56,580 nucleotides of DNA from a virus. Taxonomy: Duplodnaviria > Caudoviricetes. Location: IMG/VR virus record IMGVR_UViG_3300032305_000763, positions 1 through 56,580 of that record, one strand, 5' to 3'. The notes below the pieces were generated by a model, which saw nothing but the letters and a program-made list of their open reading frames with translations, ran no database searches and was not told where the DNA came from. This document shows positions 1-14,015 of the stretch, piece by piece. Made by a program: the position numbers and the translations under genes. Within the stretch, counting starts at the first letter, position 1; each line of letters opens with the position of its first letter.

Positions 1-133
1 CCTTGCGTTGATAAACGCTAAGACCATAAGCGGATTTACATCCACCATTATTCCAATCGTGTAAGATACGATTTTCTAACGCACCAGATATACCTAGTGC
101 TAATCCAATATTAGTTTTATTTAATGTAGTCAT
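1..133 (-). CDS. Small hypothetical early protein, 3'-truncated by the window edge (MTTLNKTNIGLALGISGALENRILHDWNNGG...)
   Basis: ATG at 133, SD AAGAAAGGT upstream, open to position 1, own leftward promoter. Confidence 0.7.
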   Translation of the reverse strand, partial: MTTLNKTNIGLALGISGALENRILHDWNNGGCKSAYGLSVYQRK

Positions 134-184
134 ATTGACCACCTTTCTTTGTTGATAACCTTTATCAACTTTCTTTATACCTCT

Positions 185-222
185 AGTATAACAGGCACCA
201 CTGACATTTCCTCGGCGTGTCG
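185..222 (-). promoter_or_regulatory. Leftward extended -10 promoter (TGTTATACT) with upstream AAATGTCAG and CGACACGCCG (GACAC, WhiA-like box)
   Basis: Reverse complement of 185-193 is TGTTATACT; CGGCGTGTCG at 213-222 is shared with the two rightward promoters. Confidence 0.7.
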
Positions 223-232
223 CAGGTTTTGA

Positions 233-254
233 AGATGAACAACAGATGAACAAC
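233..254. promoter_or_regulatory. 11-bp direct repeat resembling an actinobacterial PHO box (PhoP/RegX3, OmpR family)
   Basis: AGATGAACAAC x2; minus strand reads GTTCA-N6-GTTCA. Confidence 0.55.
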
Positions 255-286
255 AATCCACAGGCTACGTATCACCCTGTGGATAA
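254..286. promoter_or_regulatory. Pair of inverted DnaA boxes
   Basis: TGTGGATAA at 278-286 is a perfect TTATCCACA on the minus strand; CAATCCACA at 254-262 is 7/9; inverted repeat ATCCACAGG/CCTGTGGAT. Confidence 0.6.
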
Positions 287-305
287 CTTCTATGCCGGAA
301 TTTTG

Positions 306-321
306 TGTGGTGTAAATCACT
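306..321. promoter_or_regulatory. CRP/GlxR-like site
   Basis: TGTGG-TGTAAA-TCACT, 8/10 match to TGTGA-N6-TCACA. Confidence 0.5.
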
Positions 322-345
322 AATTACAATGGTGTTATTCACGGC

Positions 346-382
346 GTGTCGACTTGACTTTTTGACATTTCTATGTTATACT
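346..382 (+). promoter_or_regulatory. Strong sigmaA-type promoter P1
   Basis: TTGACT (354-359), 17 bp, TG-n-TATACT (377-382); GTGTC 3 bp upstream of -35. Confidence 0.85.
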
Positions 383-436
383 TACAGTATCAAAAATTAA
401 ATAAGGACAATTTGGCTAATGAGCCTACCAAATAAG

Positions 437-452
437 TCGAACAGATGTTCGA
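437..452. promoter_or_regulatory. LexA (SOS) box, actinobacterial/Gram-positive type
   Basis: TCGAAC-AGAT-GTTCGA, perfect match to the mycobacterial consensus TCGAAC-N4-GTTCGA. Confidence 0.8.
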
Positions 453-468
453 ATGAGCGTAGCAAATA

Positions 469-484
469 AGTGGTCTAAATCACA
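469..484. promoter_or_regulatory. Second CRP/GlxR-like site
   Basis: AGTGG-TCTAAA-TCACA, 8/10 match to consensus and near-identical to 306-321. Confidence 0.5.
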
Positions 485-489
485 CACAA

Positions 490-534
490 GACACGGCGTG
501 TCGTCTTGACTTTTCGGGTATTGTGTGTTATACT
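490..534 (+). promoter_or_regulatory. Strong sigmaA-type promoter P2 with palindromic GACAC-GGC-GTGTC upstream
   Basis: TTGACT (506-511), 17 bp, TG-n-TATACT (529-534); GACACGGCGTGTC at 490-502. Confidence 0.85.
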
Positions 535-650
535 TACAGTATAGAAAATTAAATAAGGCAAAATCCTAGTGAGCCCTACTAAGTAGGCAAATAACCTAGG
601 TCAAGGAAAAAGATAACACAAGGTTATCGCATTAAAGAAAGGTTCATTAA

Positions 651-857
651 ATGAACACTATATATAACGAAATAAAAGACGAGTTTGGTGCTAGTGCTAC
701 TAGTGCTTACTATAAAACTCCTATGCTACCTATTAGAGTAGCACAGCGTATTAACGCTACCTATCCACCTACTCACGAGGGTAGAACAATTATTCTACAC
801 CCTATGGGTATCCGTGTCGCTAAGCGATACATGTCCTTAGTTATGGGGGTAAAGTAA
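651..857 (+). CDS. Hypothetical early protein, 68 aa
   Basis: ORF with SD AAGAAAGG, downstream of P1/P2. Confidence 0.8.
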   Translation: MNTIYNEIKDEFGASATSAYYKTPMLPIRVAQRINATYPPTHEGRTIILHPMGIRVAKRYMSLVMGVK

Positions 858-859
858 TT

Positions 860-979
860 ATGAATCCTTTTACATACGCAATAGATTGGCTAGATGAGAA
901 TGCTGATTACGCTCCAATAGGTGCATTCATCGGTGTAGGCATAGCGATAGCCCTATGTTTTATATTCGGGGGTAACTAA
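860..979 (+). CDS. Small membrane protein, 39 aa (MNPFTYAIDWLDENADYAPIGAFIGVGIAIALCFIFGGN)
   Basis: Manually translated; SD-like GGGGGT; one C-terminal TM helix; tightly packed between neighbours. Confidence 0.7.
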   Translation: MNPFTYAIDWLDENADYAPIGAFIGVGIAIALCFIFGGN

Positions 980-1084
980 ATGAATAGACTACTAACAACC
1001 CTAGTGCAATTAGCACTACTAGCAATTACAATACCTATGGTTATTTCCATAGTGAAAGACATTAAGAATGGAGGTCTCAAATGA
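980..1084 (+). CDS. Small membrane protein, 34 aa (MNRLLTTLVQLALLAITIPMVISIVKDIKNGGLK)
   Basis: Manually translated; abuts the previous stop, ATGA overlap with the next gene; hydrophobic core. Confidence 0.7.
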   Translation: MNRLLTTLVQLALLAITIPMVISIVKDIKNGGLK

Positions 1085-1263
1085 TAGTTACACTCACAAG
1101 TTTCAACGGTAACGTTAAGAAGATTAACTTACCTAACGCTGAATCAGTAAAAACTTTCCTAGTAGAGTTACCTAAGAATACGCCTATGCATACACGATTA
1201 AATTTTAATTGTGATGTCTTAGGGTTTCAAGGTTTCATTACAGGCACTAAGTTAGATAAGTAG
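1081..1263 (+). CDS. Hypothetical protein, 60 aa
   Basis: SD GGAGG, ATGA coupling. Confidence 0.8.
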   Translation: MIVTLTSFNGNVKKINLPNAESVKTFLVELPKNTPMHTRLNFNCDVLGFQGFITGTKLDK

Positions 1264-1267
1264 GCTA

Positions 1268-1284
1268 AGGGGAGCGATCCCCCT
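1268..1284 (+). terminator. Hairpin at end of early operon (GGGGA-GCGA-TCCCC)
   Basis: Short GC stem with GNRA loop just after the stop; T-rich tract is about 12 bp downstream, so atypical. Confidence 0.4.
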
Positions 1285-1409
1285 AGTGTGCTCACTATTT
1301 ATTTTGGTTTTATTTTTTGAATCATGTATCATACATCTGAACAAAATATTCAGATTTTTGGGAAATAAAAATTTTTTCAGATTTCCAGGGAATAGGGTAT
1401 AATTAAACC

Positions 1410-1550
1410 ATGAGCATATTAGACAACCTAGAAAACGCCTGGGATGAAGAATGGCAAACCGAGTCATCTGGCATAATAAAAATATATTCAGATTCATGCT
1501 GTAATGGCTGTACCTGTAAGTCCGAACAAGATCACAAACCTAAAATCTAG
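1410..1550 (+). CDS. Small Cys-rich protein, 46 aa (MSILDNLENAWDEEW...SCCNGCTCKS...), probably leaderless
   Basis: Manually translated; TATAAT at 1398-1403, 6 nt before ATG. Confidence 0.7.
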   Translation: MSILDNLENAWDEEWQTESSGIIKIYSDSCCNGCTCKSEQDHKPKI

Positions 1551-1574
1551 ATATCAAGGTTTGGCAGGGTATAC

Positions 1575-2336
1575 CTACAAGGTAAACGCAGGCTCAACTA
1601 TAAGGTTCTTATTAATCTCTGTTAAAACCTTTTCTCTAAGACCAACCTTATCAAACATAGCATATCTCTGAAGAAGAGATCTTCCACGTCCAAACATATT
1701 TGTGGTCTCAACACAAGAGTTTGCATAGTTAAATAATTTTTCATTCATAGAAAACCTTTTTAACTCTATAGGTCTGTCGGTTTTAAACTCAACATAAAAA
1801 GTAGGTTCGTTTTCTTCAATAGTGAATTCTCCCTTATTTGACCACATTTGTAATTCCAAGTTAAAAGGTCTAAACCATTTTCCAATATTAAACTCTCCTG
1901 GGACTACAGTTCCGTAGTTAGTATATCCTGGCTTATGAAAATATGGTGATGTAAAAAAAGCATCTAGAGGTTCATCTGAAAAGAGCACATAAGATAAATT
2001 AATATAAATACAAGGACCTTGTTTTATAGCAGCATCTCTAAGAACTTGTGCTGCAACTCCATTAGGGTTTTCTAATTGTAAAATTTTGTTATTATTTGAA
2101 AAATCATAAGTATAGTGGGAGTCTACTGGAAAGTTAAAAACAAGTGTTTTTTTAAATTTATTTGCAGTAGCGGGGCATGAAAAGAAATTGTTATTTCCTG
2201 AATCACTGACTTTATTTTTTACCAGTGATGAAAATAACTGATCAGGCTTGGGGTATAAAAAAGACCAATCGCTATGATCTATCTCATTTATAACAAGAGG
2301 CGCCCAGTATACATTTATAGGAGTTTTTTGATTCAT
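1575..2336 (-). CDS. Hypothetical protein, 253 aa, distantly similar in motif layout to 7014-7739
   Basis: Long ORF with own TTGACA...TGCTAATAT promoter; SCPA and VPGEFNIGKWFRP motifs. Confidence 0.8.
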   Translation of the reverse strand: MNQKTPINVYWAPLVINEIDHSDWSFLYPKPDQLFSSLVKNKVSDSGNNNFFSCPATANKFKKTLVFNFPVDSHYTYDFSNNNKILQLENPNGVAAQVLRDAAIKQGPCIYINLSYVLFSDEPLDAFFTSPYFHKPGYTNYGTVVPGEFNIGKWFRPFNLELQMWSNKGEFTIEENEPTFYVEFKTDRPIELKRFSMNEKLFNYANSCVETTNMFGRGRSLLQRYAMFDKVGLREKVLTEINKNLIVEPAFTL

Positions 2337-2371
2337 ATATCAATATTAGCATAAGTCTGGTATTTGTCAAA

Positions 2372-2563
2372 TCACCACTTATCTATAGGACACTTAGCCT
2401 TTTCTAACGTAGTCTTAAGTTTCATAAAACATCCACACTTCTTACAGGTTTGAGTCTTTGGTCTAAAGAATTCACAACCTTTACAGATTTCGAGACGGTA
2501 TGCAGCCAATTCATCTGGCGATCTAGGAGATCCATTAATTAAATCAAAAGGTGTAACATCCAT
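2372..2563 (-). CDS. Small Cys-rich metal-binding protein (DUF6171-like), start revised to MDVTPF
   Basis: RLEICKGC...CKKCGCF...CPIDKW; TATAAT 6 nt upstream of ATG 2563. Confidence 0.8.
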   Translation of the reverse strand: MDVTPFDLINGSPRSPDELAAYRLEICKGCEFFRPKTQTCKKCGCFMKLKTTLEKAKCPIDKW

Positions 2564-2623
2564 CAAACCATTATATCCTATCATCGCCATATAACAAAAC
2601 CTTATCAAACCTTATTCTGGCTA

Positions 2624-2760
2624 TTCGGGATAACTGGTTATCGGGATATCAGGGATAGCAGAGAATATATTCCATACCAGACATATGTGGTTTGTTAAAC
2701 CATTGTTGTCTGTAGGAAGGTTTGCTATCTCTATTTTCGCCTTTGTTGTTTCCCGCCGAA
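2624..2760 (+). ncRNA. Candidate structured intergenic RNA
   Basis: Nested stems 2652-2662/2721-2731, 2670-2673/2715-2718, 2678-2683/2707-2712, 2688-2693/2697-2702; G-U pairs favour the + strand. Confidence 0.35.
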
Positions 2761-2792
2761 ATTTAATCTCAAATAGTGATATAATAATCTTT

Positions 2793-3008
2793 ATGACTCC
2801 ACAAGACTGGGCAGCGCTAATATTATCTATAGCATCTATTTTTGCAATTGTTGCTGGTGGAATCAAGTGGCTCGTAAAACATTATTTAAACGAACTTAAG
2901 CCAAATTCAGGATCCAGTCTAAAAGATTCCGTTAATCGGCTCGAAGAAAAAACTGACAAAATGTTTGATTTATTAATTGAGCATATTAAAGATCATAATA
3001 AAAAATAA
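2793..3008 (+). CDS. Single-TM coiled-coil membrane protein (DUF2746-like, holin-associated in actinophages); start revised to MTPQDW
   Basis: TM helix then ELKPNSGSSLKDSVNRLE; TGATATAAT 7 nt before ATG. Confidence 0.8.
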   Translation: MTPQDWAALILSIASIFAIVAGGIKWLVKHYLNELKPNSGSSLKDSVNRLEEKTDKMFDLLIEHIKDHNKK

Positions 3009-3200
3009 TCTACTATATATAATATATTATAAAAACTAAGTTTAGATATATTCTTTTCTTTATATATTTTAAGTATACACCATAACTACTGGATTTCATA
3101 CTTTTCAAATACTGGACTTTATAACAATTAGGTAACAATTACTTTATATACCTGGACTATAACAATTCGTTACAAACCCCATATATTTTTACAATATTAA
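3009..3200. other. Very AT-rich non-coding tract with short direct repeats, possible replication origin
   Basis: TA-alternating run 3013-3070; CTGGA(C/T)T x3; TAACAATT x3 (3122, 3133, 3160). Confidence 0.35.
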
Positions 3201-3215
3201 TGATATAATCTAAAC

Positions 3216-3275
3216 AGATTAGTCCCTAGGTTGCTCTCTACCCCACCCCACTGCGCCTAGGGATTAATCCTTTTT
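3216..3275 (+). ncRNA. Candidate small RNA: 14-bp stem, C-rich loop, U-tail
   Basis: TGATATAAT at 3201-3209; GATTAGTCCCTAGG (3217-3230) pairs with CCTAGGGATTAATC (3256-3269); loop TCTCTACCCCACCCCAC; followed by TTTTT; no ORF; next gene has its own promoter. Confidence 0.65.
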
Positions 3276-3293
3276 ATGGTATAATCAATTATT

Positions 3294-3698
3294 ATGTGTA
3301 ACTCTTCTATCCAAAAATATGGCGCTAATCCAATAGGCGTAAAATGGAATATTGTGCGTGGAGACACCGCTACACTAGATATTGACTTCCTTGAACTAGA
3401 TGAAATCACAGGCTTTGACTGCACTGGCTGGACCTATAAGGCTACAGCATACGATATCAATGGTGATGTGCTGGATGAACTTATTACAGAGGCTACAGGG
3501 CATTCTGTGACGATTAAGGCACCTGCCTCACTTACCCTTAATTGGGGATCTTCATATAAAAATGTTGTAGCCGAATTACCTTTTGATCTACAAGTTATTA
3601 TTGAAGCAACCAGCGGTCCTGCAGAAGATACAGTTTGGACTCCAATTGTTGGTACAATTACTGTTATAGGAGATGTTTCTCCAGGAGGTAGTCTATGA
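3294..3698 (+). CDS. Virion structural protein, beta-rich RGDT family (BppU-N-like), paralog 1
   Basis: WNIVRGDT...FDLQV...GTITVIGDVS. Confidence 0.8.
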   Translation: MCNSSIQKYGANPIGVKWNIVRGDTATLDIDFLELDEITGFDCTGWTYKATAYDINGDVLDELITEATGHSVTIKAPASLTLNWGSSYKNVVAELPFDLQVIIEATSGPAEDTVWTPIVGTITVIGDVSPGGSL

Positions 3699-3799
3699 GT
3701 ATTCCAACAGATATAGTTATTGCTATTAGTTCTAAGACTGATACGCTACCGTCGATTATTAAAGTTGATAACGTTGTCTACAAGGTACAGGAGTTCTAA
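3695..3799 (+). CDS. Small protein, 34 aa (MSIPTDIVIAISSKTDTLPSIIKVDNVVYKVQEF)
   Basis: ATGA and TAATG overlaps with both neighbours. Confidence 0.7.
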   Translation: MSIPTDIVIAISSKTDTLPSIIKVDNVVYKVQEF

Positions 3800-4143
3800 T
3801 GGCATTTCCAGGAACATATAATTTTAACTACTACCGTGGTGATACAAACCAATTCGTAATCCGTCCAAAAAATGCAAATGGAGGCGCATTTGATTTAACT
3901 GGATACACAGCACAATTTAAAATTGCAAACCGTCGTGGTTCAACTGGTACACAGTATGAAGGACAGGTCACTGTTGATACGACAAATGATTTAGTTACTT
4001 GTACAATTTTGCCAGGTGTAGGAAGAAGCCTTGCTGCAGGAACATTTGTATATGATGTTCAAATTACAACAGGTGCTTCAAATATTATTACAATACTAAC
4101 TGGATCAATTACAGTAACAGATGACATTACGGGTGCTGTCTAA
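3799..4143 (+). CDS. Virion structural protein, RGDT family paralog 2
   Basis: YYRGDT...YDVQI...GSITVTDDIT. Confidence 0.8.
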   Translation: MAFPGTYNFNYYRGDTNQFVIRPKNANGGAFDLTGYTAQFKIANRRGSTGTQYEGQVTVDTTNDLVTCTILPGVGRSLAAGTFVYDVQITTGASNIITILTGSITVTDDITGAV

Positions 4144-4718
4144 TGCCTGATGTTTTATTGTCAAATGATGATGTAACAGTTTTAGGTCCACCAAACACAG
4201 TTGAAGTTTTAGTAGATATTGGTCCAACTGGAACTCGTGGTAGTCAAGTATTTGTTGGCGTTGGAGATCCAAATGTTTTTGAAATTGGTCAAACCCCACT
4301 ATTAAATGATTTATATATAAATGCATCTCCAGGTGCTGACTATGGATATATGTATCAATATGTCTCTGAGCCTGGTGGAGATACCTGGATTCAAATTCTT
4401 GAAATAAGTCCAACACTATATAGCCAACTTCATTCCACAACATATGTTGATGGGGTTGCACAAGTGGTTATACCTATTTCAAACATCGTTACTGTCACTG
4501 GTTCACCATTGGCATCAAATAACTTTGTAGTTCAATATAGCATTGCCCATGATAATCCTACTGCTTCTTCTGTTGCTGTTCCCGCACTTGTCGGGGCTGG
4601 AACAAATTTAGTTCTAAACTTTTCAGCAGTAGAATACACAGGCTCTGTATGGCAAAATCTAGATGAGGAGGTAACCACTCACTTATTTATATCGATTGTT
4701 CTGGACGAAGAGTCATAA
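4143..4718 (+). CDS. Putative virion structural protein, 191 aa
   Basis: Coupled ORF; GPTGTRGS and GDP...NDLYIN motifs typical of fibre N-termini. Confidence 0.75.
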   Translation: MPDVLLSNDDVTVLGPPNTVEVLVDIGPTGTRGSQVFVGVGDPNVFEIGQTPLLNDLYINASPGADYGYMYQYVSEPGGDTWIQILEISPTLYSQLHSTTYVDGVAQVVIPISNIVTVTGSPLASNNFVVQYSIAHDNPTASSVAVPALVGAGTNLVLNFSAVEYTGSVWQNLDEEVTTHLFISIVLDEES

Positions 4719-4762
4719 GAGCAATAAGATTATGGTATAATTTTGTGAAGAGGTGATATATT

Positions 4763-5890
4763 ATGGCAGTTGAATCAATTGGATCGCTCTACCCAACAAA
4801 GATCCCAGGGTATGCGGACGCAGCAGATATTCAGGCAGCACTACGTGCCTACCACTACGGGTCATATACATATGACACAGCAAACACATCAACAGGATCA
4901 CTCGTTGCCAACTCAATGGCAAAATTTTTATTTGATATCGAAACAGATATTGCAGCACTTGAAAACCGTCCATCATCAGGTGGAGAGGTCGACACAGCAG
5001 CCCCTGCAGCAGTAGATTTTACACCAGCAGAAATTCCAGATGGATTTATTTGGGTAGATCAAGATGGATCTATTGGCGGTGGACCAACTGGAGCAACAGC
5101 AGTATTTACAAATAGCGCACCAACAACTTCTATTACAACTGGAACTGTTTGGGTAGACAAAGATGCAACTGCAATCACAGCAAATCCCTTTATCCCACAA
5201 GCACTTATTAATGCTAAGGGTGATTTAATTGCTGGTAGTGCAAATGATACCGCAACAATTTTAGCAATTGGAACAAATGGTTATGTATTAGCAGCAAGTT
5301 CTGCAACAACATCTGGTCTAGTATGGACAGATACCGCAGCATCAACACAAACCCTTACAAATAAGTCAATTTCACTTGGCTCAAACACAGTTACATCAAC
5401 GCTTGCTCAGTTAAATACTGCAGTTAGCGATGCTGACGTAGCCTCTATTGCAGGAACAGAAACACTTACAAACAAAACCTTAACTAATCCATTATTATCT
5501 TCACCAGAAGAATCTGTAAATATTATTGCAGCAGCACCTACAGCAACTCAGAATATTGATTTTGTTACATCTGGTGTTCATTACTTTACATCTAACTCTA
5601 CTTCTAATGTTACCCTAAATTTTAGGGGAGATGCAACACCAACAACACTTAACTCCATGATGGCTATTGGTGGATCGGTTACTATAAGCGTTATGATTAC
5701 AAATGGCTCAACAGCATATCGTGCAACTGCTTTCCAAATTGATGGAAACGCAGTTACTCCAAAATGGTCAGGTGGAACAGCACCTTCTGCTGGAAATGCT
5801 TCTGCAATTGATTTTTATTCGTTTAATATTTTAAAAACAGCAAATGCTGCATTTACAATTTTTGCGTCAGGAGCGAGTAAGTTCGCATGA
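4763..5890 (+). CDS. Tail-fibre/adaptor protein (cassette 1)
   Basis: AKGDLIAG, TLTNKTLT repeats, C-terminal WSGGTAPSAGNASAIDFYSFNILKT domain. Confidence 0.8.
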   Translation: MAVESIGSLYPTKIPGYADAADIQAALRAYHYGSYTYDTANTSTGSLVANSMAKFLFDIETDIAALENRPSSGGEVDTAAPAAVDFTPAEIPDGFIWVDQDGSIGGGPTGATAVFTNSAPTTSITTGTVWVDKDATAITANPFIPQALINAKGDLIAGSANDTATILAIGTNGYVLAASSATTSGLVWTDTAASTQTLTNKSISLGSNTVTSTLAQLNTAVSDADVASIAGTETLTNKTLTNPLLSSPEESVNIIAAAPTATQNIDFVTSGVHYFTSNSTSNVTLNFRGDATPTTLNSMMAIGGSVTISVMITNGSTAYRATAFQIDGNAVTPKWSGGTAPSAGNASAIDFYSFNILKTANAAFTIFASGASKFA

Positions 5891-6633
5891 GTCCTTTATT
5901 TGGATACGGTTTAAGTGGTGGAGCAGGAAAATCTCCAATTGTTGCTACTGGTGGAACAACAAGTTCAGTTGGATTATATACATTTCACACATTTAATAGC
6001 ACTGGATCATTTACAGTATCTTCAAATCCAAGTGCTCTAGATATATACGTCTTAATTATTGGCGGTGGAGGCAATGGATCTACTGGTGGTAGAGGCGACC
6101 AAGTAGGTCGTGGTTATGGAGGAAATCCTGGAGGCGCAAGAGAAGCACTTGTTTCTGCTCCTACCGCAGGATCCTATACAGTAACTGTAGGTGGAGCCGC
6201 TGGAACATCTAGTTTTACAGATAATGCTAATTCAATAACACTATCCGCAACTGGCGGAGCCTCTGGTTCTAACAGTGCAAGTCTTGCAGCCTTAACTTCT
6301 GGATATCCAGGACCAAAACGAAAATCACCTGGTAACGCAGCAGCCGCACAAAATGGTTATCCAACATACTTTAATGGTACATTAGTTACATATGGTGGCG
6401 GTGGTGGAGATGGTGCGGGAAGCAGTTACGGCGGGGGTGAAGCCGCAACAAATGGTATTTATTTTGGCGGTAACGGCGGAGCAGGGGTAGACTCAAGTTC
6501 ATCAGGTGGAAGTGCAAATGGTCCAGGCGGTGCAGGCGGTGCAGGCGCTTCTGGTCAGTTTAACAACTCAGGCGGTGGCGGTGGCGGTTCTGGTGGAACT
6601 GGAATTGTTATTATTAAGTATTTTACGGCGTAA
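5887..6633 (+). CDS. Glycine-rich putative adhesin/fibre tip
   Basis: ATGG...YTFHTF...VLIIGGGG...GGTGIVIIKY. Confidence 0.8.
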   Translation: MSPLFGYGLSGGAGKSPIVATGGTTSSVGLYTFHTFNSTGSFTVSSNPSALDIYVLIIGGGGNGSTGGRGDQVGRGYGGNPGGAREALVSAPTAGSYTVTVGGAAGTSSFTDNANSITLSATGGASGSNSASLAALTSGYPGPKRKSPGNAAAAQNGYPTYFNGTLVTYGGGGGDGAGSSYGGGEAATNGIYFGGNGGAGVDSSSSGGSANGPGGAGGAGASGQFNNSGGGGGGSGGTGIVIIKYFTA

Positions 6634-6643
6634 AGGAATATAA

Positions 6644-6958
6644 ATGAAACAATTTGCAATTATAGTAGATGGAACTGTAGAGAATGTAATTGTTGCTGAC
6701 TCTTTGGAGTCTGCTATTTCTCATACAGGGCTTGACTGTGTAGAAATTACTGAATCTACAGGTCGTCCAAATATTGGCTGTCAATATAGCGATTCTTTAA
6801 ACAAGTTTGCGGAACTGAAACCTTTTACATCTTGGATCTTAAACTCTGAATTTGAATGGAACGCTCCTACAGAATATCCTTCTGATGGTAAATATTATTA
6901 TTGGAATGAGCCTTCTCTAGAATGGCTAGAAGGAAACCAAGCAGCATCTGGTCTATAG
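6644..6958 (+). CDS. Small acidic fibre-associated protein
   Basis: MKQFAII..V.NVIVA, KPFTSW...WNAP..YP..GKYYYWNE. Confidence 0.75.
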   Translation: MKQFAIIVDGTVENVIVADSLESAISHTGLDCVEITESTGRPNIGCQYSDSLNKFAELKPFTSWILNSEFEWNAPTEYPSDGKYYYWNEPSLEWLEGNQAASGL

Positions 6959-7013
6959 TTTATATTTTAAAAATAAACTTGCATAAAAAATAGTCATATG
7001 GTATAGTTGTTTT

Positions 7014-7739
7014 ATGGGGGAAACAATGAAAATAACATTTACAAATACAATTGGCATTCCAGAAGAATACTCTCCAAAACCATCATCTAAATATATTCCA
7101 GATTGGTATAAAAATCTAGAGTCTTATATTGGTGGGGAAAAGAAACCTGCAGGAGATGGAACAACAACAGGAACTATTAAACGCTGTATGCCTGTATTTG
7201 ATGCTATCGATGCTGGGTATATTATTCCTACACCCTGCGATGTTTGGGTAAGGCAAGTTCCTCTTGAAGATGATCCAACAAAAACACAGCCATACTATGA
7301 GTGGGCTAATTTTAGCGTTATCCAGTTTCATCCAATACAGCAAGCACCAGTCCATCCAAATAATAATGGTCACACAAATTCTTATCCTAAGTGGATAAAT
7401 TCTTGGTCAATTAAGACTCCCCCAGGATATTCAGTAGCATTTGTTCAGCCTTGGCATAGAGAGTCTGTATTTACTATCCTTCCAGGAGTTGTTGATACTG
7501 ATACCTATAGCGCTCCAGTAAATTTTCCATTTGTTCTTAATGAGCCAACTACATTTGAAGGTCTTATTTCAGCAGGAACTCCCATGGCTCAAGTTATTCC
7601 ATTTAAGAGAGACTCTTGGGAAATGGAAATTGGAGGGCAAGAAGATTGGGTAAACCAAAATAAGGTAACTAGCCTTCTTAGAACTAAATTCTTTGACTCC
7701 TATAAAACCCAATATAGACAGCCTAAAGAGTATAAGTAA
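7014..7739 (+). CDS. Hypothetical protein (DUF6065-like, possible dUTPase-like fold), independently promoted insertion
   Basis: KRCMPVFDA..GYII, TPPGYS, LPGVVDTD, GTPMAQVIPFKR; TTGCAT...TGGTATAGT promoter; alternative start 7026. Confidence 0.75.
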   Translation: MGETMKITFTNTIGIPEEYSPKPSSKYIPDWYKNLESYIGGEKKPAGDGTTTGTIKRCMPVFDAIDAGYIIPTPCDVWVRQVPLEDDPTKTQPYYEWANFSVIQFHPIQQAPVHPNNNGHTNSYPKWINSWSIKTPPGYSVAFVQPWHRESVFTILPGVVDTDTYSAPVNFPFVLNEPTTFEGLISAGTPMAQVIPFKRDSWEMEIGGQEDWVNQNKVTSLLRTKFFDSYKTQYRQPKEYK

Positions 7740-7812
7740 TCTATGATATAATCAGATTATGATTTTATAGCAATACCCCAAAACCTGCTATAATAAGTAA
7801 CGAGGAGAACCA

Positions 7813-8793
7813 ATGGCAACTTTTAATACAACAGATCCAAAACCAGGATACGTCTATGACGCAGCAGTTGATACTTGGTTTCCACTAGTAGGTATTGCAC
7901 CAGGTTCTTCTGTCTACCGTTGGAGAAAAACAGCAGCAGGATCAGAGACAAGTTTTACTGGCGTAGATGATTTAGGTGCTACTCTTTCATATAATGCGGG
8001 GACTGAACAAGTTTACCTTAATGGAGTATTACTAGTAAGAACAGAAGACTACCTTGCAACAACTGGTACATCTATTACTGGTTTAACTGCCCTTGCCGCT
8101 AGCGATGTAATTGAAGTTATTTCATTTAATGCAACTAACATTCAAGTTACAGACGCTCTTCTAGAAACTGATATTAATGCAAAAGGTGATTTAATTGTAG
8201 GTGCTGCTGTAGATACCGCAACAATTTTAGCATCAGGAACAAATGGTCAAGTATTAAAGGTTAACACAGCAACTACATCTGGACTTGAGTGGGGATCAGA
8301 TTCAACATATGCTCAACCAACTCTTGGTTCAACAGCAATTACATCTGGAGCAACAGTTACAAACATTGCAAACCTAACTGTAACAAAACCAATTTTAGTA
8401 GCACCAATGGAAAGAACATCAGTTTCTACATCTGCTGCAACTGGCACGGTAACAATCAATGTCAACACAGCATCAACACTATATATAACAGCATCATCAA
8501 CAAGCAACTGGGTATTAAATGTTCAAGCAGATGCAACACCAACAACTCTTAACTCTATTATGACTACTGGAGATGCGATTACAGTGGCATTCCTTGCAAC
8601 ACAGGGTGCAACAGCATATTACAATACATCAGTTCAAATTGATGGAACTACATCTGGTGTTACAGTAGAGTGGCAAGGCGGAACTGCTCCAGCAGCAGGA
8701 AACGTAAGCGGTATTGATGCATATGTTTATAACATTATCAAAACAGCATCTGCAACCTATACAGTACTAGCAAGTCAAACAAAGTTTGCGTAA
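7813..8793 (+). CDS. Tail-fibre/adaptor protein (cassette 2)
   Basis: VYLNGVLL, AKGDLIVG, C-terminal WQGGTAPAAGN..IDAYVYNIIKT. Confidence 0.8.
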   Translation: MATFNTTDPKPGYVYDAAVDTWFPLVGIAPGSSVYRWRKTAAGSETSFTGVDDLGATLSYNAGTEQVYLNGVLLVRTEDYLATTGTSITGLTALAASDVIEVISFNATNIQVTDALLETDINAKGDLIVGAAVDTATILASGTNGQVLKVNTATTSGLEWGSDSTYAQPTLGSTAITSGATVTNIANLTVTKPILVAPMERTSVSTSAATGTVTINVNTASTLYITASSTSNWVLNVQADATPTTLNSIMTTGDAITVAFLATQGATAYYNTSVQIDGTTSGVTVEWQGGTAPAAGNVSGIDAYVYNIIKTASATYTVLASQTKFA

Positions 8794-8802
8794 GGAGTTC
8801 TA

Positions 8803-9408
8803 GTGAGTCCAATACTAGAATCCATAGGGTCGGTTAAAGGGTTTGGTTGGGGTGCTTTATTAGCATCTACAGCATTTGAATCTATTGCAACTGTAACTTT
8901 GTCAACTGACGCATCTATAGCAACTTTTAGTTCTATTCCATCAACATTTAAGCATTTGCAAATTAGATGTATGTCTAAACCAGCAAGCGGTGTAACTTCT
9001 TATGGTTATGCATGGATGAAATTAAATGAAACTGCTGGCTACTCAAATCATAGTATTAGTGGAAATGGTTCTAGCGCTTCTGCTGCTGGTGCTACAGGGA
9101 ATTCATTTGCTGAAATTAGAGGCGGAATGCCATATACTGGCGCTGTAGGCACTAACATCTTTGGAGTAGCCATAATTGATATTATTGATTATGCAAGCAC
9201 AACAAAAAACAAAACAATCCGATCTTTTGCAGGATGGGATGGTAATGGAGCAGCAGGGGGAAATGATGGCGTTGTTGGCTTACACTCTAGTCTAGCAACT
9301 GGAATAACAACAACCGCTGTTTCTTCAGTAAGTATGTATTGTTACGCTTCAGGAGCAAATTTTCTTGCAGGGTCAACATTTGCTTTATACGGAATTAAGG
9401 GGGCATAG
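8803..9408 (+). CDS. Fibre-tip paralog A (IAT.TL...FSSIP.T...LYGIK family)
   Basis: Motifs shared with the next two ORFs; GTG start with SD AGGAG. Confidence 0.8.
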   Translation: MSPILESIGSVKGFGWGALLASTAFESIATVTLSTDASIATFSSIPSTFKHLQIRCMSKPASGVTSYGYAWMKLNETAGYSNHSISGNGSSASAAGATGNSFAEIRGGMPYTGAVGTNIFGVAIIDIIDYASTTKNKTIRSFAGWDGNGAAGGNDGVVGLHSSLATGITTTAVSSVSMYCYASGANFLAGSTFALYGIKGA

Positions 9409-9411
9409 ACA

Positions 9412-9912
9412 ATGGCAGCAGGACCAACATACGAGCCAATTGCTACCACGACTTTAGGTAGTGCAGCAAGCACAATAACTTTGTCTAGCATACCCGCAAC
9501 TTACACAGATCTAAAAATTGTGTTGGCTAACGTTTTTACGTCTTATGCTTTAGATACAGTTAAAATTCAATTTAACGGCGATACTGCTACAAATTATTCA
9601 GCGACAGCGTTAATGGGTGATGGCGCTACTGCTCAAAGTTCAAGACAAACTAGCGTCAACAGCGGGTTGCTTGGTCGAGCAGGTTACCAATCTACACGCC
9701 CTTCAATGATTATTGCTGACATCTTCTCTTATGCAGGTTCAACCTACAAGACTTATCTATCTGACTCTGCTGCTGACCAAAATGGTTCAGGTGAAGTTTT
9801 GCGCCACGTTGGTCTATGGCGTTCAACTGCTGCAATTACTTCTATTACTTTAATGAACGTCACCTTTCAAGCAGGTGCGGTCGTCTCTCTGTATGGGATA
9901 AAAAATGCCTAA
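9412..9912 (+). CDS. Fibre-tip paralog B
   Basis: YEPIATTTL...SIPATYTDL...W.STAAITSI...LYGIK. Confidence 0.8.
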   Translation: MAAGPTYEPIATTTLGSAASTITLSSIPATYTDLKIVLANVFTSYALDTVKIQFNGDTATNYSATALMGDGATAQSSRQTSVNSGLLGRAGYQSTRPSMIIADIFSYAGSTYKTYLSDSAADQNGSGEVLRHVGLWRSTAAITSITLMNVTFQAGAVVSLYGIKNA

Positions 9913-10420
9913 TACCTACACACTCATTTCATCCAATGTCCTTGCCAGTTCTGCTGCATCTGTTACCTTCTCGGCGATACCTGCTACCTATACGGATTTG
10001 GTGTTGCGTTATTCTGCTAGGTGTGATGCCGCAGTTACAGAAAGATTGGCTTACATAGAATTAAATGCAACTGCTTCGGGTATTAGTGAAACTTATTTGA
10101 TGGGTGATGGTGCAAGTGCTACTTCTGCTAGAGCAACATCTCAACCCTTTATAGGATATTTGAGAGTTCCAGGAACAAGCGGTACTGCAAGCACCTTTAG
10201 CAGTGGTGAGTTTTATATTCCTTCTTATACTGTCAGTCAAAATAAACCAATGTCTGTATTTGATGTAACAGAAAGAAATAATACTACTGCTTATATTTTG
10301 GCAGAAGCAGTATTATGGTCAAACTCAGCCGCTATAACTCAAATTAAATTTGGCTTAGATGGTTCAGGTTCACTTGTATCAGGCTCATCATTTTATCTAT
10401 ACGGAATCAAGAATACTTAA
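9905..10420 (+). CDS. Fibre-tip paralog C
   Basis: YTLISS..L...IPATYTDL...WSNSAAITQI...LYGIK. Confidence 0.8.
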   Translation: MPNTYTLISSNVLASSAASVTFSAIPATYTDLVLRYSARCDAAVTERLAYIELNATASGISETYLMGDGASATSARATSQPFIGYLRVPGTSGTASTFSSGEFYIPSYTVSQNKPMSVFDVTERNNTTAYILAEAVLWSNSAAITQIKFGLDGSGSLVSGSSFYLYGIKNT

Positions 10421-10435
10421 GGAAAGGAGAAAACT

Positions 10436-10669
10436 ATGTCAGAAACATTAACAGCAGTTGAAGTTAACTGCACAACAGGAGAAGTGACAGAACGTCCACT
10501 TACTGCTGAAGAAATCTCACAGCGTGAGGCAGATGCAGCAGCATTTGCTATTGCAGAAGCAGAGCGTGAAGCAGAAGCCACAGCAGCAGCAGAGGCAAAA
10601 GCCAGCGGTATTGCAAAACTACTAGCACTAGGATTAACTGAATCAGAAGCAAACGCTTTAATCAAGTAA
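10436..10669 (+). CDS. Small helical fibre-associated/chaperone-like protein
   Basis: EVNCTTGE..ER.LT.EE...KLLALGLTE.E; SD AGGAG. Confidence 0.75.
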   Translation: MSETLTAVEVNCTTGEVTERPLTAEEISQREADAAAFAIAEAEREAEATAAAEAKASGIAKLLALGLTESEANALIK

Positions 10670-10705
10670 TCTGCTATAATAGCATAAGGAATGATAGGAG
10701 CATAA

Positions 10706-11266
10706 GTGACTAAAGCAAGAACGAACGCCGATAACGTTACCGCTGATATTGCGGGTATTACAGCCTCGACAGGATTAACAGGTGGCGGTACAAGCGGAAC
10801 CGTAACCTTAGCAATTGATACAGCAACAACTGTAGATTTAGCAACTGCCCAAAATCTTTCAAACAAGGTATTGATTGCTCCAGAAGAGCGCACAACTGTG
10901 TCTACATCTGCTGCTACAGCAACTACTCAGTTTGACGCTGATACTCAAGGGGTATTATATTTAACAGGATCTAATACTAGTAACTGGACTCTTAATGTAA
11001 GAGGATCTGGTTCCACTACCCTGGCTTCTAAACTAGCCGTTGGTGATTCAATGTCAATTATTTTTATGACAACAAATGGTGCTACACCCTACAGACATAC
11101 TGCATTAACAATTGATGGCAATGCACAAACAGTAAACTGGTCAGGTGGCACAGCCCCTGCTGCAGGAAATGCCTCTTCAGTTGACGCCTACTCATTTACA
11201 ATTTTTAAAACAGCAGCAACACCTACCTACACCGTATTTGGTGCGGGACCAGTGAAGTACGCATAA
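10706..11266 (+). CDS. Fibre adaptor protein (cassette 3)
   Basis: MTKAR start, AGTGLTGGG-like segment, C-terminal WSGGTAPAAGNASSVDAYSFTIFKT. Confidence 0.8.
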   Translation: MTKARTNADNVTADIAGITASTGLTGGGTSGTVTLAIDTATTVDLATAQNLSNKVLIAPEERTTVSTSAATATTQFDADTQGVLYLTGSNTSNWTLNVRGSGSTTLASKLAVGDSMSIIFMTTNGATPYRHTALTIDGNAQTVNWSGGTAPAAGNASSVDAYSFTIFKTAATPTYTVFGAGPVKYA

Positions 11267-11275
11267 GGAGACATA

Positions 11276-12070
11276 ATGCCATTAATGAACCTAGTATCTG
11301 CAGGTGGAATTGGTAAGGCTACTGTAACAGGTACGACTGGTTCTCCTAGTATTGATTCATCTACTCGTGCTGGTAAGACTATTTACAGATTTACTGGATC
11401 TGGTTCTATTACTATTGGAACTGCTGGAACAGCAGAAGTTTTAATTGTTGGTGGTGGCGGTAGTTTTCCATCGGGTTTTACTTCTGGTGGCGGTGGTGGT
11501 GGTGGTTATGTATATGATACTTCTGCAATTCTTCCATCAGGAACTTTGACTGTTACTGTTGGAGGTGGCGGTGGCGGCACTACAACAAGCGCTTTGCCAG
11601 GAGAGCCATCAGCGATTGGAATTTTACCTCTTGGTTATCTTGCTCTTGGGGGAGGTGCTGGTGGTTATAGTAATACTGGTCGGGCTGGTGGTTCAGGTGG
11701 TGGTGGCGCCGGTGTCAGTAACAATACGGGCGGAAGTTCACAGTTAAGCCAAGGTTTTTCTGGGGGTCTTGGAAATGATACAGGAAATTCACGAGGCGGC
11801 GGTGGCGGTGGAGCAGGTGGTGTTGGCAGCAACTCAAACGGAACTATTGGGGGAAATGGTGGCATTGGCGCTACTAATTCTATTACTGGCACATCAACGG
11901 TGTATGCTGGTGGAGGAAACGCATACCAGGCTACAGGCGGGGGAAGTGGCGGTGGCGGAACATCAGCAAGCCCTAATGGAACAGCAAACACAGGCGGTGG
12001 CGGTGGCTCTAATGCTTCTTATGCCGCAAGCAGTGGCGGTTCAGGCGTAGTAGTAGTGGTGATTGGATAA
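11276..12070 (+). CDS. Glycine-rich putative adhesin
   Basis: IYRFTGSGS...VLIVGGGG...NTGGGGG...GGSGVVVV. Confidence 0.8.
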   Translation: MPLMNLVSAGGIGKATVTGTTGSPSIDSSTRAGKTIYRFTGSGSITIGTAGTAEVLIVGGGGSFPSGFTSGGGGGGGYVYDTSAILPSGTLTVTVGGGGGGTTTSALPGEPSAIGILPLGYLALGGGAGGYSNTGRAGGSGGGGAGVSNNTGGSSQLSQGFSGGLGNDTGNSRGGGGGGAGGVGSNSNGTIGGNGGIGATNSITGTSTVYAGGGNAYQATGGGSGGGGTSASPNGTANTGGGGGSNASYAASSGGSGVVVVVIG

Positions 12071-12072
12071 TT

Positions 12073-12336
12073 ATGGCACACTTTGCAAGAGTAGAAGATA
12101 ACATTGTTAGACAAGTTATTGCAGTTAATAACGAAGTTTTAGAAAACAAAGAGTTTCCAGAATCAGAAACTATAGGGATTGCATTTTGCAAGTCGCTTTA
12201 TGGTGAAGACACAGAGTGGTTACAAACCTCATATAACTCAAACTTTAGAGGAACATACGCAGGATCAGGAATGACCTATGATCCAGTATTAGATATTTTC
12301 ACATATCCAACGGTAACGGAGGAAGTACCAGAGTAA
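12073..12336 (+). CDS. Small acidic MAHFA-type fibre-associated protein
   Basis: MAHFA...WLQTSYN..FRG.YAG.G.TYD...D.F. Confidence 0.8.
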   Translation: MAHFARVEDNIVRQVIAVNNEVLENKEFPESETIGIAFCKSLYGEDTEWLQTSYNSNFRGTYAGSGMTYDPVLDIFTYPTVTEEVPE

Positions 12337-12355
12337 AATCTGTTATAATAACACT

Positions 12356-13009
12356 ATGGCAATTACATTCGATAATGATGGCAAACCAGCATATATGTTC
12401 AAGCAGGGGGCTTCGTCCTCTGATGGAGTATGGTATGCAGTAGGGGCTAAAGTTGATACTTCTGCTGCTTATGAATTTACTGGAGCCAATAGTTTTACAA
12501 ATACCGTTTTATTTGACGATACAGTTACTGCTACTGCAGGTTGGAATAACTTCCTAAACCCAGCAGCAAGAGACGCAGCATTGGCTACACCAGTAAGAGG
12601 AACAATTTGTTTTGTTCGTCAAGATGCAGGTGGAGCAGCACTAAACCAAATTCAATCATATGATGGATCTGCTTGGGTAGCAAGTGGAGACGTTTTTGGA
12701 GTTACAGCAGGAACAGGTATTTCTGGCGGGGGAACATCAGGAACAGTAACATTATCAGTAGATACTACAGTAGTAGCAACTACAAGCAATACTCTTACAA
12801 TGAGCGGTAAAACTTTAACAACACCAACTATTAATGGTGCTACTATCTCTGGAGCATTTACATCAACTGCTACAGTTTCAGGAGGCACTTATTCTGCTCC
12901 AACACTATCTGGAACAGTAACTGCATCAGGAGATATTAATCTATCTGCTGCAGGTGGACCAGGAAGCGTAATTGACGAACTAACATTGCTCCTTATGGGC
13001 GCAATCTAA
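12356..13009 (+). CDS. Fibre/adaptor protein (cassette 4)
   Basis: ARDAAL..P..G, YDGSAW, AGTGISGGGTSGTVTL; leaderless from TGTTATAAT. Confidence 0.8.
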   Translation: MAITFDNDGKPAYMFKQGASSSDGVWYAVGAKVDTSAAYEFTGANSFTNTVLFDDTVTATAGWNNFLNPAARDAALATPVRGTICFVRQDAGGAALNQIQSYDGSAWVASGDVFGVTAGTGISGGGTSGTVTLSVDTTVVATTSNTLTMSGKTLTTPTINGATISGAFTSTATVSGGTYSAPTLSGTVTASGDINLSAAGGPGSVIDELTLLLMGAI

Positions 13010-13026
13010 ACGAGAGGTAGTAACTA

Positions 13027-13329
13027 ATGGCTACATTAACAAAGGTCCTTGCTCGTACAGCAGCAGCGACATCAAGCACAACACTATATACAGTACCTGC
13101 TTCAACTACAACAGTAGTAAGCAACATTGTTGTTACTAACACTGCAGGAACTGCAGGAACTTTTTCTCTATTGCTAGATGATGTATCACTTCATACAACA
13201 GCAGCAATCGCAGCAAATGCAACAGTATATATTGATCTTAAGCAAGTTCTTGCTACAACTAAGACTATTAAAGGTCTTGCATCAGCAACAACAATTAACT
13301 TTCATATTAGCGGAGTGGAGATTTCCTAA
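13027..13329 (+). CDS. Small beta-rich virion protein
   Basis: TTLYTVPASTTTVV.NI...NFHISGVEI. Confidence 0.8.
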   Translation: MATLTKVLARTAAATSSTTLYTVPASTTTVVSNIVVTNTAGTAGTFSLLLDDVSLHTTAAIAANATVYIDLKQVLATTKTIKGLASATTINFHISGVEIS

Positions 13330-14015
13330 TGGGTCTATCAGTATTTCCTGAATCAAGTGGTGCATCTTACACAGCAGTATCCCCATCTTTAAGGGCTACA
13401 TATACAACTACAACAAATAGCATTACTTACAGTGGAGTCAATGCTGCTTTAGTTATTGCAGCAGGCGGCGGAGGCGGCGGAGGCGGCGGTGCTTCAACTG
13501 GATATGGTGGCGGCTCTGGCAGTTCATATGGAGCAGGCGGTGGTGGTGGTGGCGGTGCTGGTGCAATTTTTGTTGGAACTATGGTTCCTCCTCCAAGTAG
13601 CGTAACAATTGGTGCTGCTGGCAATGGTGGAACTGCCCCTGGCAATAGCGGTTCCAACGGTGGTGCTGGTAATGCAGGTGGATCAACAATACTTTCTGGA
13701 AATATCACTTTGGTTGGTGGTAGCGCTGGTAATGGCGGTAGTACTGCTGGCGCCGGCGGCAACACGGCTAACGCTAACGCTGGAGGAACTGGTGGAACTA
13801 GTGGTGGTGCAAGTGGATGGATTCAGGGAACTGCAACTGCTGGATCAAGCGCTGCTGGTACAACTGGACCAGCAGGTGTTGGAGCCAGCGGATATACTAA
13901 TTATGGAAAAGGTGGCAATGGTGGCACGGGGGGTCCTGGTGGATATAGAGAAGATGTTGGTGCTGGAAGTGTTGGTTCCGCTGGCGGAGCAGGAGTTTTA
14001 CTTGTCCACTACTAA
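13329..14015 (+). CDS. Glycine-rich putative adhesin
   Basis: MGLSVFP start; multiple poly-Gly runs. Confidence 0.8.
   Translation: MGLSVFPESSGASYTAVSPSLRATYTTTTNSITYSGVNAALVIAAGGGGGGGGGASTGYGGGSGSSYGAGGGGGGGAGAIFVGTMVPPPSSVTIGAAGNGGTAPGNSGSNGGAGNAGGSTILSGNITLVGGSAGNGGSTAGAGGNTANANAGGTGGTSGGASGWIQGTATAGSSAAGTTGPAGVGASGYTNYGKGGNGGTGGPGGYREDVGAGSVGSAGGAGVLLVHY

Follow-up and report, generated by a model that had tools for sequence, protein, structure and literature searches.

The divergent intergenic tract and its features

The window, i.e. the whole stretch of DNA analysed here, is the entire virus record IMGVR_UViG_3300032305_000763 (56,580 bp, linear, both ends cut; CheckV completeness 52%). 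Close to its left end, a gap of 519 bp (132-650) lies between a leftward gene (start 133) and the first rightward gene (651-857), and this gap holds promoters surrounded by words that resemble the binding sites of host regulators (Table 1). Judged from its sequence, the tract controls divergent early promoters in an uncultured Actinomycetota phage of low G+C content. An earlier note on this DNA had described it as a dense platform of host master-regulator sites around three strong promoters, and every motif listed in that note is indeed in place.

Table 1 Features of the divergent control tract and of the genes on either side (window positions)
Feature	Position	Strand	Details
First leftward gene, 5' part, 44 codons	2..133	-	Open reading frame list; ATG 133-131; runs off contig end
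Leftward promoter PL	185..206	-	TGTCAG (206-201), N10, TATACT (190-185), TG 193-192; without -35
WhiA-type box 1, CGGCGTGTCG (reverse complement of CGACACGCCG)	213..222	+	7 nt upstream of PL TGTCAG
Two 11-nt direct repeats AGATGAACAAC	233..254	+	Minus strand reads GTTCA-N6-GTTCA
Inverted repeat ATCCACAGG-N11-CCTGTGGAT (256-284) with DnaA-type box	256..286	.	Box TTATCCACA at 278-286, minus strand
CRP/GlxR-type palindrome 1, TGTGGTGTAAATCACT	306..321	.	Centre 40 bp before P1 -35
Orphan palindrome AATTACA-N4-TGTTATT	322..339	.	Between CRP-type site and WhiA box 2
WhiA-type box 2	342..351	+	2 nt before P1 -35
Promoter P1, TTGACT-17 nt-TG-n-TATACT	354..382	+	Promoter scan; predicted start ~389
Two-copy RNA module GAGC-CTAC-CAAATAAG / GAGC-GTAG-CAAATAAG	421..470	+	Encloses SOS palindrome TCGAAC-AGAT-GTTCGA (437-452)
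CRP/GlxR-type palindrome 2, AGTGGTCTAAATCACA	469..484	.	Centre 29 bp before P2 -35
WhiA-type box 3 (494-503), extended to palindrome GACACG-G-CGTGTC (490-502)	490..503	+	2 nt before P2 -35
Promoter P2, TTGACT-17 nt-TG-n-TATACT	506..534	+	Promoter scan; predicted start ~541
Leader RNA hairpin CCTAG, TGAGC, C-CTAC-taa-GTAG-G, CAAATAA, C, CTAGG	565..600	+	Covariation
Second leader hairpin GATAAC-acaag-GTTATC	612..628	+	Sequence; followed closely by AAAGAAAGG (634-642)
First rightward gene, 68 aa, no known family	651..857	+	Open reading frame list; probe for related loci

P1 and P2 are promoters of the -35/-10 type: both score 10/12 plus TG in the promoter scan, and they lie in 152-bp tandem units that are 85% identical across 67 nt. 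The third of the promoters that the earlier note had called strong (minus strand, 206-185) differs in having no -35 element. Minus-strand hairpins that look like terminators (508-487, 502-490 and 452-437) were considered and rejected, because the words recur in both orientations and at a fixed distance to the -35. The leftward gene 2-133 has AAAGGTGG ahead of its ATG, and its product has no match in Pfam or PHROG.

WhiA-type boxes and a promoter architecture shared by related viral loci

The 68-aa product of 651-857 was used as a probe and identified 40 viral loci with 39-83% identity over the best-matching segment. Removal of 7 near-duplicates and of 2 loci without upstream DNA left 31 loci, which together with the window give 32 sequences (226,297 bp); the family counts below refer to these sequences, with letter-permuted words or arms as controls.

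The WhiA-type 10-mer CGGCGTGTCG has three exact copies in the window (0.17 expected; none of 100 shuffles reaches three), each upstream of a promoter; box 3 is extended into a full palindrome. Its assignment is firmer than the 5-mer match GACAC named in the earlier note, as CGGCGTGTCG is the exact complement of CGACACGCCG, a mycobacterial consensus. This is the top WhiA motif from the chromatin immunoprecipitation (ChIP) data of Minch et al., quoted as 'CGACACGCCGn' in passages of PMC13473873 next to the M. smegmatis WhiB2 motif 'cGACACGc'; the same passages give GACACGCC as the primary M. tuberculosis motif of WhiA (ChIP-seq, IDAP-seq) and likewise of WhiB2. Passages of PMC10243135 describe that the C-terminal domain of WhiA reads GACAC upstream of the -35 and that WhiB bridges WhiA to region 4 of sigma-A, and state that in WhiA/WhiB targets GACAC may be on one or the other strand, its distance to the -35 downstream being variable.

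In the 32 sequences, the 8-mer GACACGCC occurs 105 times (2.0 for permuted words) and the 10-mer CGACACGCCG 72 times (0.15 for permuted words). Fifty of the 105 8-mers are found as GGCGTGTC-N3-TTG and 15 as GACACGCC-N10-TTG; with these two spacings, which differ by one helical turn, the centre of the GACAC core precedes the -35 by 6 or 16 bp. The boxes are few: five long records (57-92 kb) have between three and five 8-mers each, and 20 of these 21 copies fall into a single cluster of at most 3 kb per record. Relatives have further boxes up to ~2.6 kb leftward, which makes it plausible that, as the earlier note had suspected, the array continues beyond the left end of the window.

The CRP/GlxR-type palindromes belong to the same architecture. 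The two sites in the window (TGTGGTGTAAATCACT and AGTGGTCTAAATCACA) match TGTGA-N6-TCACA at 8/10 positions each, and in the family perfect palindromes are found 63 times, compared to 2.7 with permuted arms. A CRP-type site (two mismatches at most) accompanies 59 of 65 WhiA-box promoters, centred either 29-30 bp (41 sites) or 38-40 bp (18 sites) before the -35, and within the 16-bp palindrome G2, T3, G4 and the C, A, C of the other arm are invariant in 58-59 of the 59 phased sites. A GntR/DasR-like reading of GTGGTCTA was dropped in favour of this CRP-type consensus.

The order of elements is shared: a TGTGA-N6-TCACA palindrome, 21 or ~31 bp of spacer with the 10-mer inside it in either orientation, CTTGACTTTT, 17 bp and TGnTAnnnT, with the core promoter in the form TTGACT-17-TGnTAnnnT. 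Family counts are 16- to 480-fold above composition-matched controls, the spacing distributions are sharp, and the recurrent words are kept across loci whose neighbouring protein is just 39-67% identical.

Several further words were observed in the related loci (e.g. L002, L006, L014, L016, L019, L030). ATGTCCGAT, often present as AATGTCCGATTTGTCCG, has 25 copies in 18 of the 32 sequences (1.4 permuted), and TGAGCGTCTCA precedes some promoters; both are absent from the tract of the window. An orphan palindrome AATTACA-N4-TGTAATT (one mismatch at most) is at the place of the window's 322-339 palindrome in L012, L013, L024, L028 and L032. The -10 hexamer is mirrored by a downstream inverted repeat, for example TATACT-tac-AGTATA, in the window at 377-390, 529-543 and 176-190 (minus strand); 76 of 144 promoters have a mirror arm that overlaps the hexamer and is 5 nt or longer (mean 7.8 and maximum 14 when the downstream 20 nt are shuffled), and the arms co-vary with the -10 variant. 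At 634-642 of the window and at most gene starts of the related loci, AAAGAAAGG(T) takes the place of GGAGG as ribosome-binding word; 28 of the 31 upstream regions have it.

The WhiA composite in cellular genomes

When one genome per prokaryote species was scanned for the composite CGGCGTGTCG-NN-TTGACTTTT, 22 loci were found: 8 are on low-G+C phage-like contigs in assorted metagenome-assembled genomes, 10 are in high-G+C Actinomycetota and 4 are apparently there by chance. In 9 of the 10 Actinomycetota (Propionibacteriales or other) the composite adjoins an orthologue of the same secreted CHAP-domain protein, and in 8 it lies upstream of the gene in the same orientation. This protein is a candidate for a WhiA-controlled cell-wall hydrolase. 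The CHAP-gene loci of Nocardioides-type genomes (L041, L042, L044, L056-L059, L061 and L062) have the composite close to the gene start, and in three Propionibacteriales genomes (L042, L057, L059) a word similar to the orphan palindrome is located 21-25 nt before the WhiA 10-mer.

Phage type and host lineage

The window has an overall G+C content of ~37% (31-48% across 1-kb windows). Its genes encode portal, prohead protease, capsid and tape-measure proteins, a class II ribonucleotide reductase, DnaB, primase, a single-stranded DNA-binding protein and a PHP domain of DNA polymerase III alpha; tRNA genes were not found. The best cultured matches of the portal protein are Streptomyces phages of ~130 kb (44-46% identity over 95-100% of the query, E ~1e-146 to 1e-149), and Streptomyces phages make up 127 of the 251 records that match it. 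At the DNA level, similarity of window positions 1-8000 to cultured phages is restricted to three pieces of ~150 bp.

Among 13 related viral records, all fragments, WhiB (PF02467) exceeds its cut-off in 3; it does not do so in the window, a record that is 52% complete. The WhiB proteins of the relatives have the Wbl cysteines and the GVWGG motif; according to a published abstract and passages, Wbl proteins are exclusive to Actinobacteria. No WhiA box was found within 400 nt upstream of the relatives' whiB genes (4 cases). Portal matches, WhiB in relatives and the WhiA motif point to an actinobacterial host lineage; on the same evidence, a host among the cyanobacteria or firmicutes, which we had also considered, was dropped.

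Elsewhere in the window, the product of 19290-20672 has the N-terminal domain of a major tropism determinant (Mtd_N, E 4.8e-14), and its gene is near several genes for tail-fibre-like and glycine-rich proteins (4763-14015). A second intergenic tract at 1263-1410 has inverted repeats, direct repeats of 27 nt (1340-1393) and, at 1374-1403, a site resembling a promoter with TATAAT; the WhiA word is absent from this tract.

The SOS palindrome and a structured leader RNA

The palindrome TCGAACAGATGTTCGA at 437-452 is perfect: it matches all 16 positions of TCGAAC(N4)GTTCGA, the consensus that passages of PMC3381160 give for LexA of M. tuberculosis. One such 16-mer is present in the window where 0.00 are expected, and in the family CGAAC-N4-GTTCG occurs 13 times (0.8 with permuted arms).

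Ten of these 13 boxes are embedded in an RNA module, three (L009, L012, L013) are outside of it. The modules are of the UGAGC/CAAAUAA type, and 26 were found in 40 sequences (the window, the 31 loci and the 8 phage-like contigs). In every one of them the two 4-nt cores are complementary (15 CTAC/GTAG, 8 CTAG/CTAG, 3 CTAT/ATAG), whereas the hairpin inside is CGAAC-N4-GTTCG in 10, TGTGA-N6-TCACA in 4 and unrelated to either in 12. In the 10 modules with SOS palindrome the arms CGAAC/GTTCG are invariant while the loop varies (AGAT, AAAT, AAGT, ATCT, AACT).

The hairpin at 565-600 is the single-copy form of the module. When 17 sequences are aligned with MAFFT, 89.1% of its cells are paired, compared to 68.7% in shuffled alignments (0/500 reach the observed value) and 21-47% in slid controls, and 9 of its 11 pairs are changed on both sides. 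At the place of the 612-628 hairpin, relatives have different yet complementary stems, as judged by eye. Covariation and complementary cores show the SOS palindrome to be part of a real structured RNA; it may also serve LexA, as the arms are invariant while the loop varies and 3 of 13 boxes are outside the modules. Rfam searches at E values up to 10 returned no family beyond sub-threshold chance matches, and a single-sequence fold of 386-660 was uninformative (z = -1.8). The leader, whose helices have UGAGC on their 5' and CAAAUAA(G) on their 3' side and are present once or in several nested copies, appears to be an undescribed structured RNA.

The PafBC-type leftward promoter, DnaA-type boxes and direct repeats

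PL would add a sixth input that the earlier note had overlooked. The PafBC consensus given in passages of PMC8635444 is tGTCgg(N10)tA(N3)T, found in hybrid promoters that have a -26 element and a -10 but no -35; PL (TGTCAG-N10-TATACT, minus strand, 206-185) fits this consensus, with GAGGAA at the place of the -35. In the family, TGTCRGTG-N8-TAnnnT has 34 copies in 23 of 32 sequences, and 34 of 35 TGTCRGTG words have exactly N8.

Of the inverted pair of DnaA boxes described in the earlier note, one partner is perfect (TGTGGATAA at 278-286, i.e. TTATCCACA on the minus strand) and the other (CAATCCACA, 254-262) agrees at only 7/9 positions; the true symmetry around the box is ATCCACAGG-N11-CCTGTGGAT (256-284). 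Perfect TTATCCACA boxes number 57 in 24 of the 32 sequences (2.9 permuted); many form tandem pairs with 11-13 bp between them or are fused to half of a CRP-type site. These boxes could be regulatory sites or an origin. Like the DnaA boxes, the CRP-like sites are significant only through the related loci.

The direct repeats at 233-254 consist of two exact 11-nt units AGATGAACAAC, which on the minus strand are the GTTCA-N6-GTTCA of the earlier note, where they were read as a PHO box. They look like a response-regulator site of the OmpR/PhoB kind. The units are real and the PHO assignment is the weakest item of all: it agrees at 9/11 positions with what we take to be the Streptomyces-type consensus, and the units are present in 6-7 of the 32 sequences. 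GATGAACA-N3-GATGAACA is found in 6 of 32 sequences, always beside the WhiA box of PL. An alphaproteobacterial LexA reading of GAAC-N7-GAAC in 233-254 was dropped, as the evidence points to Actinomycetota.

Proposed mechanism and alternative explanations

We lean towards the view that the early promoters are wired to host factors, with 132-650 coupling all three of them to host regulators, so that the phage probably times its early genes by the state of the cell. The promoters would be read by the housekeeping RNA polymerase of the host. At P1 and P2, with the WhiA word abutting the -35 and the CRP/GlxR-type palindrome beyond it, displaced upstream by one or two turns of the helix and thus facing the same side, host WhiA would bind the boxes together with a WhiB-family partner on region 4 of sigma-A, and a CRP-family dimer would occupy the palindromes. 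The WhiB partner may be that of the host or, in relatives carrying the gene, the phage's own. WhiA and CRP would thereby couple early transcription to division or growth state and to cyclic AMP (cAMP), PafBC and LexA would add inputs from DNA damage, and DnaA would add a replication input or mark an origin. Sequences, geometry, conservation and the identity to published motifs can be read off directly, whereas binding, an effect in either direction (activation or repression) and the host are inferences.

A number of observations weigh against this proposal. P1 and P2 are near consensus and so may need no activator, and the boxes could instead mediate repression or competition for RNA polymerase. 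As the relatives were found via the adjacent gene, their conservation is in part shared descent. A sample of 301 Actinomycetota genomes shows no enrichment of GGCGTGTC-N3-TTGAC: 16 genomes contain 17 matches (one each from the unpublished genomes G245 and G107), compared to 14 with the reversed control. Hence the idea that box plus -35, as an exact composite, form a general actinobacterial promoter grammar was rejected. The expectation that cultured relatives share the boxes was not borne out for Streptomyces phage Yaboi, the nearest cultured relative checked, which has one GACACGCC in 131 kb, equal to the control. The CRP-type sites are centred at about -64.5, ~3 bp off what we assume to be the class I position of E. 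coli. The SOS box lies clear of the core promoters: it is at about +48 to +63 of P1, ~55 nt past the P1 -10, and at about -97 from P2, with 61.5 bp between its centre and the P2 -35. In Table 1 of PMC4285127, TTATCCACA is the high-affinity DnaA box of E. coli and B. subtilis, one base off the box TTGTCCACA of M. tuberculosis and S. coelicolor. In the window alone, finally, TTATCCACA is not significant (2 copies, 0.77 expected; 15/100 shuffles reach 2) and CRP-like sites with up to two mismatches are not enriched (16, 38.6 expected).

The last two counts, and the 9/11 agreement of the PHO reading with a presumed consensus, are what one would expect if the motif matches had arisen by chance from many searches with short consensus sequences in an AT-rich intergenic tract. 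Family counts 16- to 480-fold over the controls and sharp spacing make this explanation next to negligible for the tract as a whole. Chance is refuted for the WhiA, CRP-type, SOS, DnaA-type and PafBC-type words and possible for the PHO reading; the statement of the earlier note that several host-regulator words coincide beyond chance stands for WhiA and SOS from the window itself and for CRP-type and DnaA-type through the family, and may not hold for the PHO-like repeat. The same note had offered two uses for the words, a sensor panel and a decoy array that titrates host regulators as the phage DNA amplifies, inducing SOS and blocking oriC firing and division, and had proposed to distinguish them by fixed or variable spacing to the promoters. 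The spacing is fixed and helically phased, and this, together with the small number of sites, favours regulation over a decoy. Exact words of a high-affinity type do fit a decoy, and at high phage copy number they could titrate scarce WhiA as a side effect, but with just 3-5 WhiA 8-mers per 57-92 kb record, clustered at promoters, and a single SOS box in the window, we regard titration as the purpose of the tract as very unlikely.

It is also conceivable, though improbable in our view, that the words are operators of regulators encoded by the phage itself, for example of a protein that switches from early to middle genes, and that their likeness to host sites is only apparent. Phage control regions usually hold multiple phage operators; the products of the early genes mostly belong to no family, which leaves room for a phage DNA-binding protein; all records are fragments (37-86% complete); and Yaboi, though related, does without the boxes. 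However, at least four independent words (WhiA 10-mer, SOS 16-mer, PafBC geometry, DnaA 9-mer) match published host motifs, and this identity together with the cellular CHAP genes, where WhiA word plus -35 are also present, argues against purely phage-encoded readers. The words are moreover kept at 39-67% identity of the neighbouring protein, whereas phage operators usually diverge with immunity type, and no HTH_WhiA, HTH_Crp_2 or Bac_DnaA_C domain was found in five records (52-86% complete). A more serious alternative, which we find plausible without favouring it, concerns only the SOS palindrome: the 'LexA box' may be a mere stable hairpin within the structured P1 leader RNA, UGAGC-NNNN-CAAAUAAG / hairpin / UGAGC-N'N'N'N'-CAAAUAAG. 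The complementary cores of all 26 modules, the exchange of the inner hairpin for an unrelated one in 12 and for a CRP-type one in 4 of them, the strong covariation of the single-copy form and the position off any promoter all fit this alternative; the invariant SOS arms in 10 of 26 modules despite loop variation, the excess of perfect boxes, three of them outside modules, and the 16/16 match of the window copy to the mycobacterial consensus do not. The two readings of this palindrome, LexA operator and RNA hairpin, are mutually compatible. The earlier claim of a LexA box is right about the consensus and incomplete about the site, which is not over a promoter and doubles as inner hairpin of a covarying module.

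Regulation by host factors remains the reading that we prefer, and of the two uses given in the earlier note the sensor panel is the favoured one. A tentative extension of it, which we consider rather doubtful, gives the whiB genes a purpose: phage WhiB on host sigma-A would recruit host WhiA, constitutively present, to the CGACACGCCG boxes and switch on a small cluster of promoters regardless of the level of host WhiB, with CRP, PafBC, LexA and DnaA sites gating them by cAMP, damage and replication. No published report of WhiA boxes on phage promoters was found in a search that left most subscription journals outside. Should host WhiA bind here with its partners, phage promoters would for the first time, as far as the literature search goes, be known to be part of the WhiA/WhiB division switch, and the whiB genes common among actinophages would gain a concrete role. 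Abundant lake phages would then use a handful of early promoters to read division, cAMP, DNA damage and replication, and compact natural promoters with WhiA, CRP, PafBC and LexA inputs would be at hand for work in Actinobacteria.

Comparison with known systems

Phages with genes under the control of host LexA include Bacillus phage GIL01, CTXphi and coliphage 186. The tract resembles these and the mycobacterial SOS box as given in passages of PMC3381160 in having a perfect 16/16 box in a phage control region. It differs in that the box is off the core promoter and inside a structured RNA module. In the early operons of phages lambda (nut) and HK022 (put), leader RNAs act in cis. As in these, conserved stem-loops, often with GNRA loops, are found directly downstream of early promoters; unlike these, the phage leader has a conserved internal loop UGAGC / CAAAUAA, and it has no relation to them in sequence or in Rfam.

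PL is comparable to the PafBC-dependent (RecA-NDp) 'sigma adaptation' promoters of mycobacteria described in passages of PMC8635444, with which it shares the TGTCAG-N10-TAnnnT geometry and the absence of a -35. It deviates from them by A instead of g at position 5, by a WhiA word 7 nt upstream, by being phage-borne and by driving small genes of unknown function rather than repair genes. The CRP-type sites are unlike class I sites in two respects: the centre is ~29.5 bp before the -35, about 3 bp further than we presume for that class, and a WhiA site fills the gap available to the C-terminal domain of the alpha subunit. In their 16-bp palindrome upstream of the -35 and in registers ~10 bp apart they agree with CAP/CRP class I promoters and with actinobacterial GlxR/CRP sites (PMC10187061).

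The closest likeness of P1 and P2 is to the sigma-A promoters that are co-activated by WhiA and WhiB, such as sepX of S. venezuelae (passages of PMC10243135) and the WhiA/WhiB2 regulon of M. tuberculosis (passages of PMC13473873): a GACAC core, here as the full GACACGCC / CGACACGCCG, directly precedes the -35 on either strand, the promoters are of the housekeeping-sigma type, and some related phages have a WhiB-family gene. Unlike those promoters, the ones described here are phage-borne and have a near-consensus -35, their boxes are restricted to two or three fixed registers, and a CRP-type palindrome is always attached.

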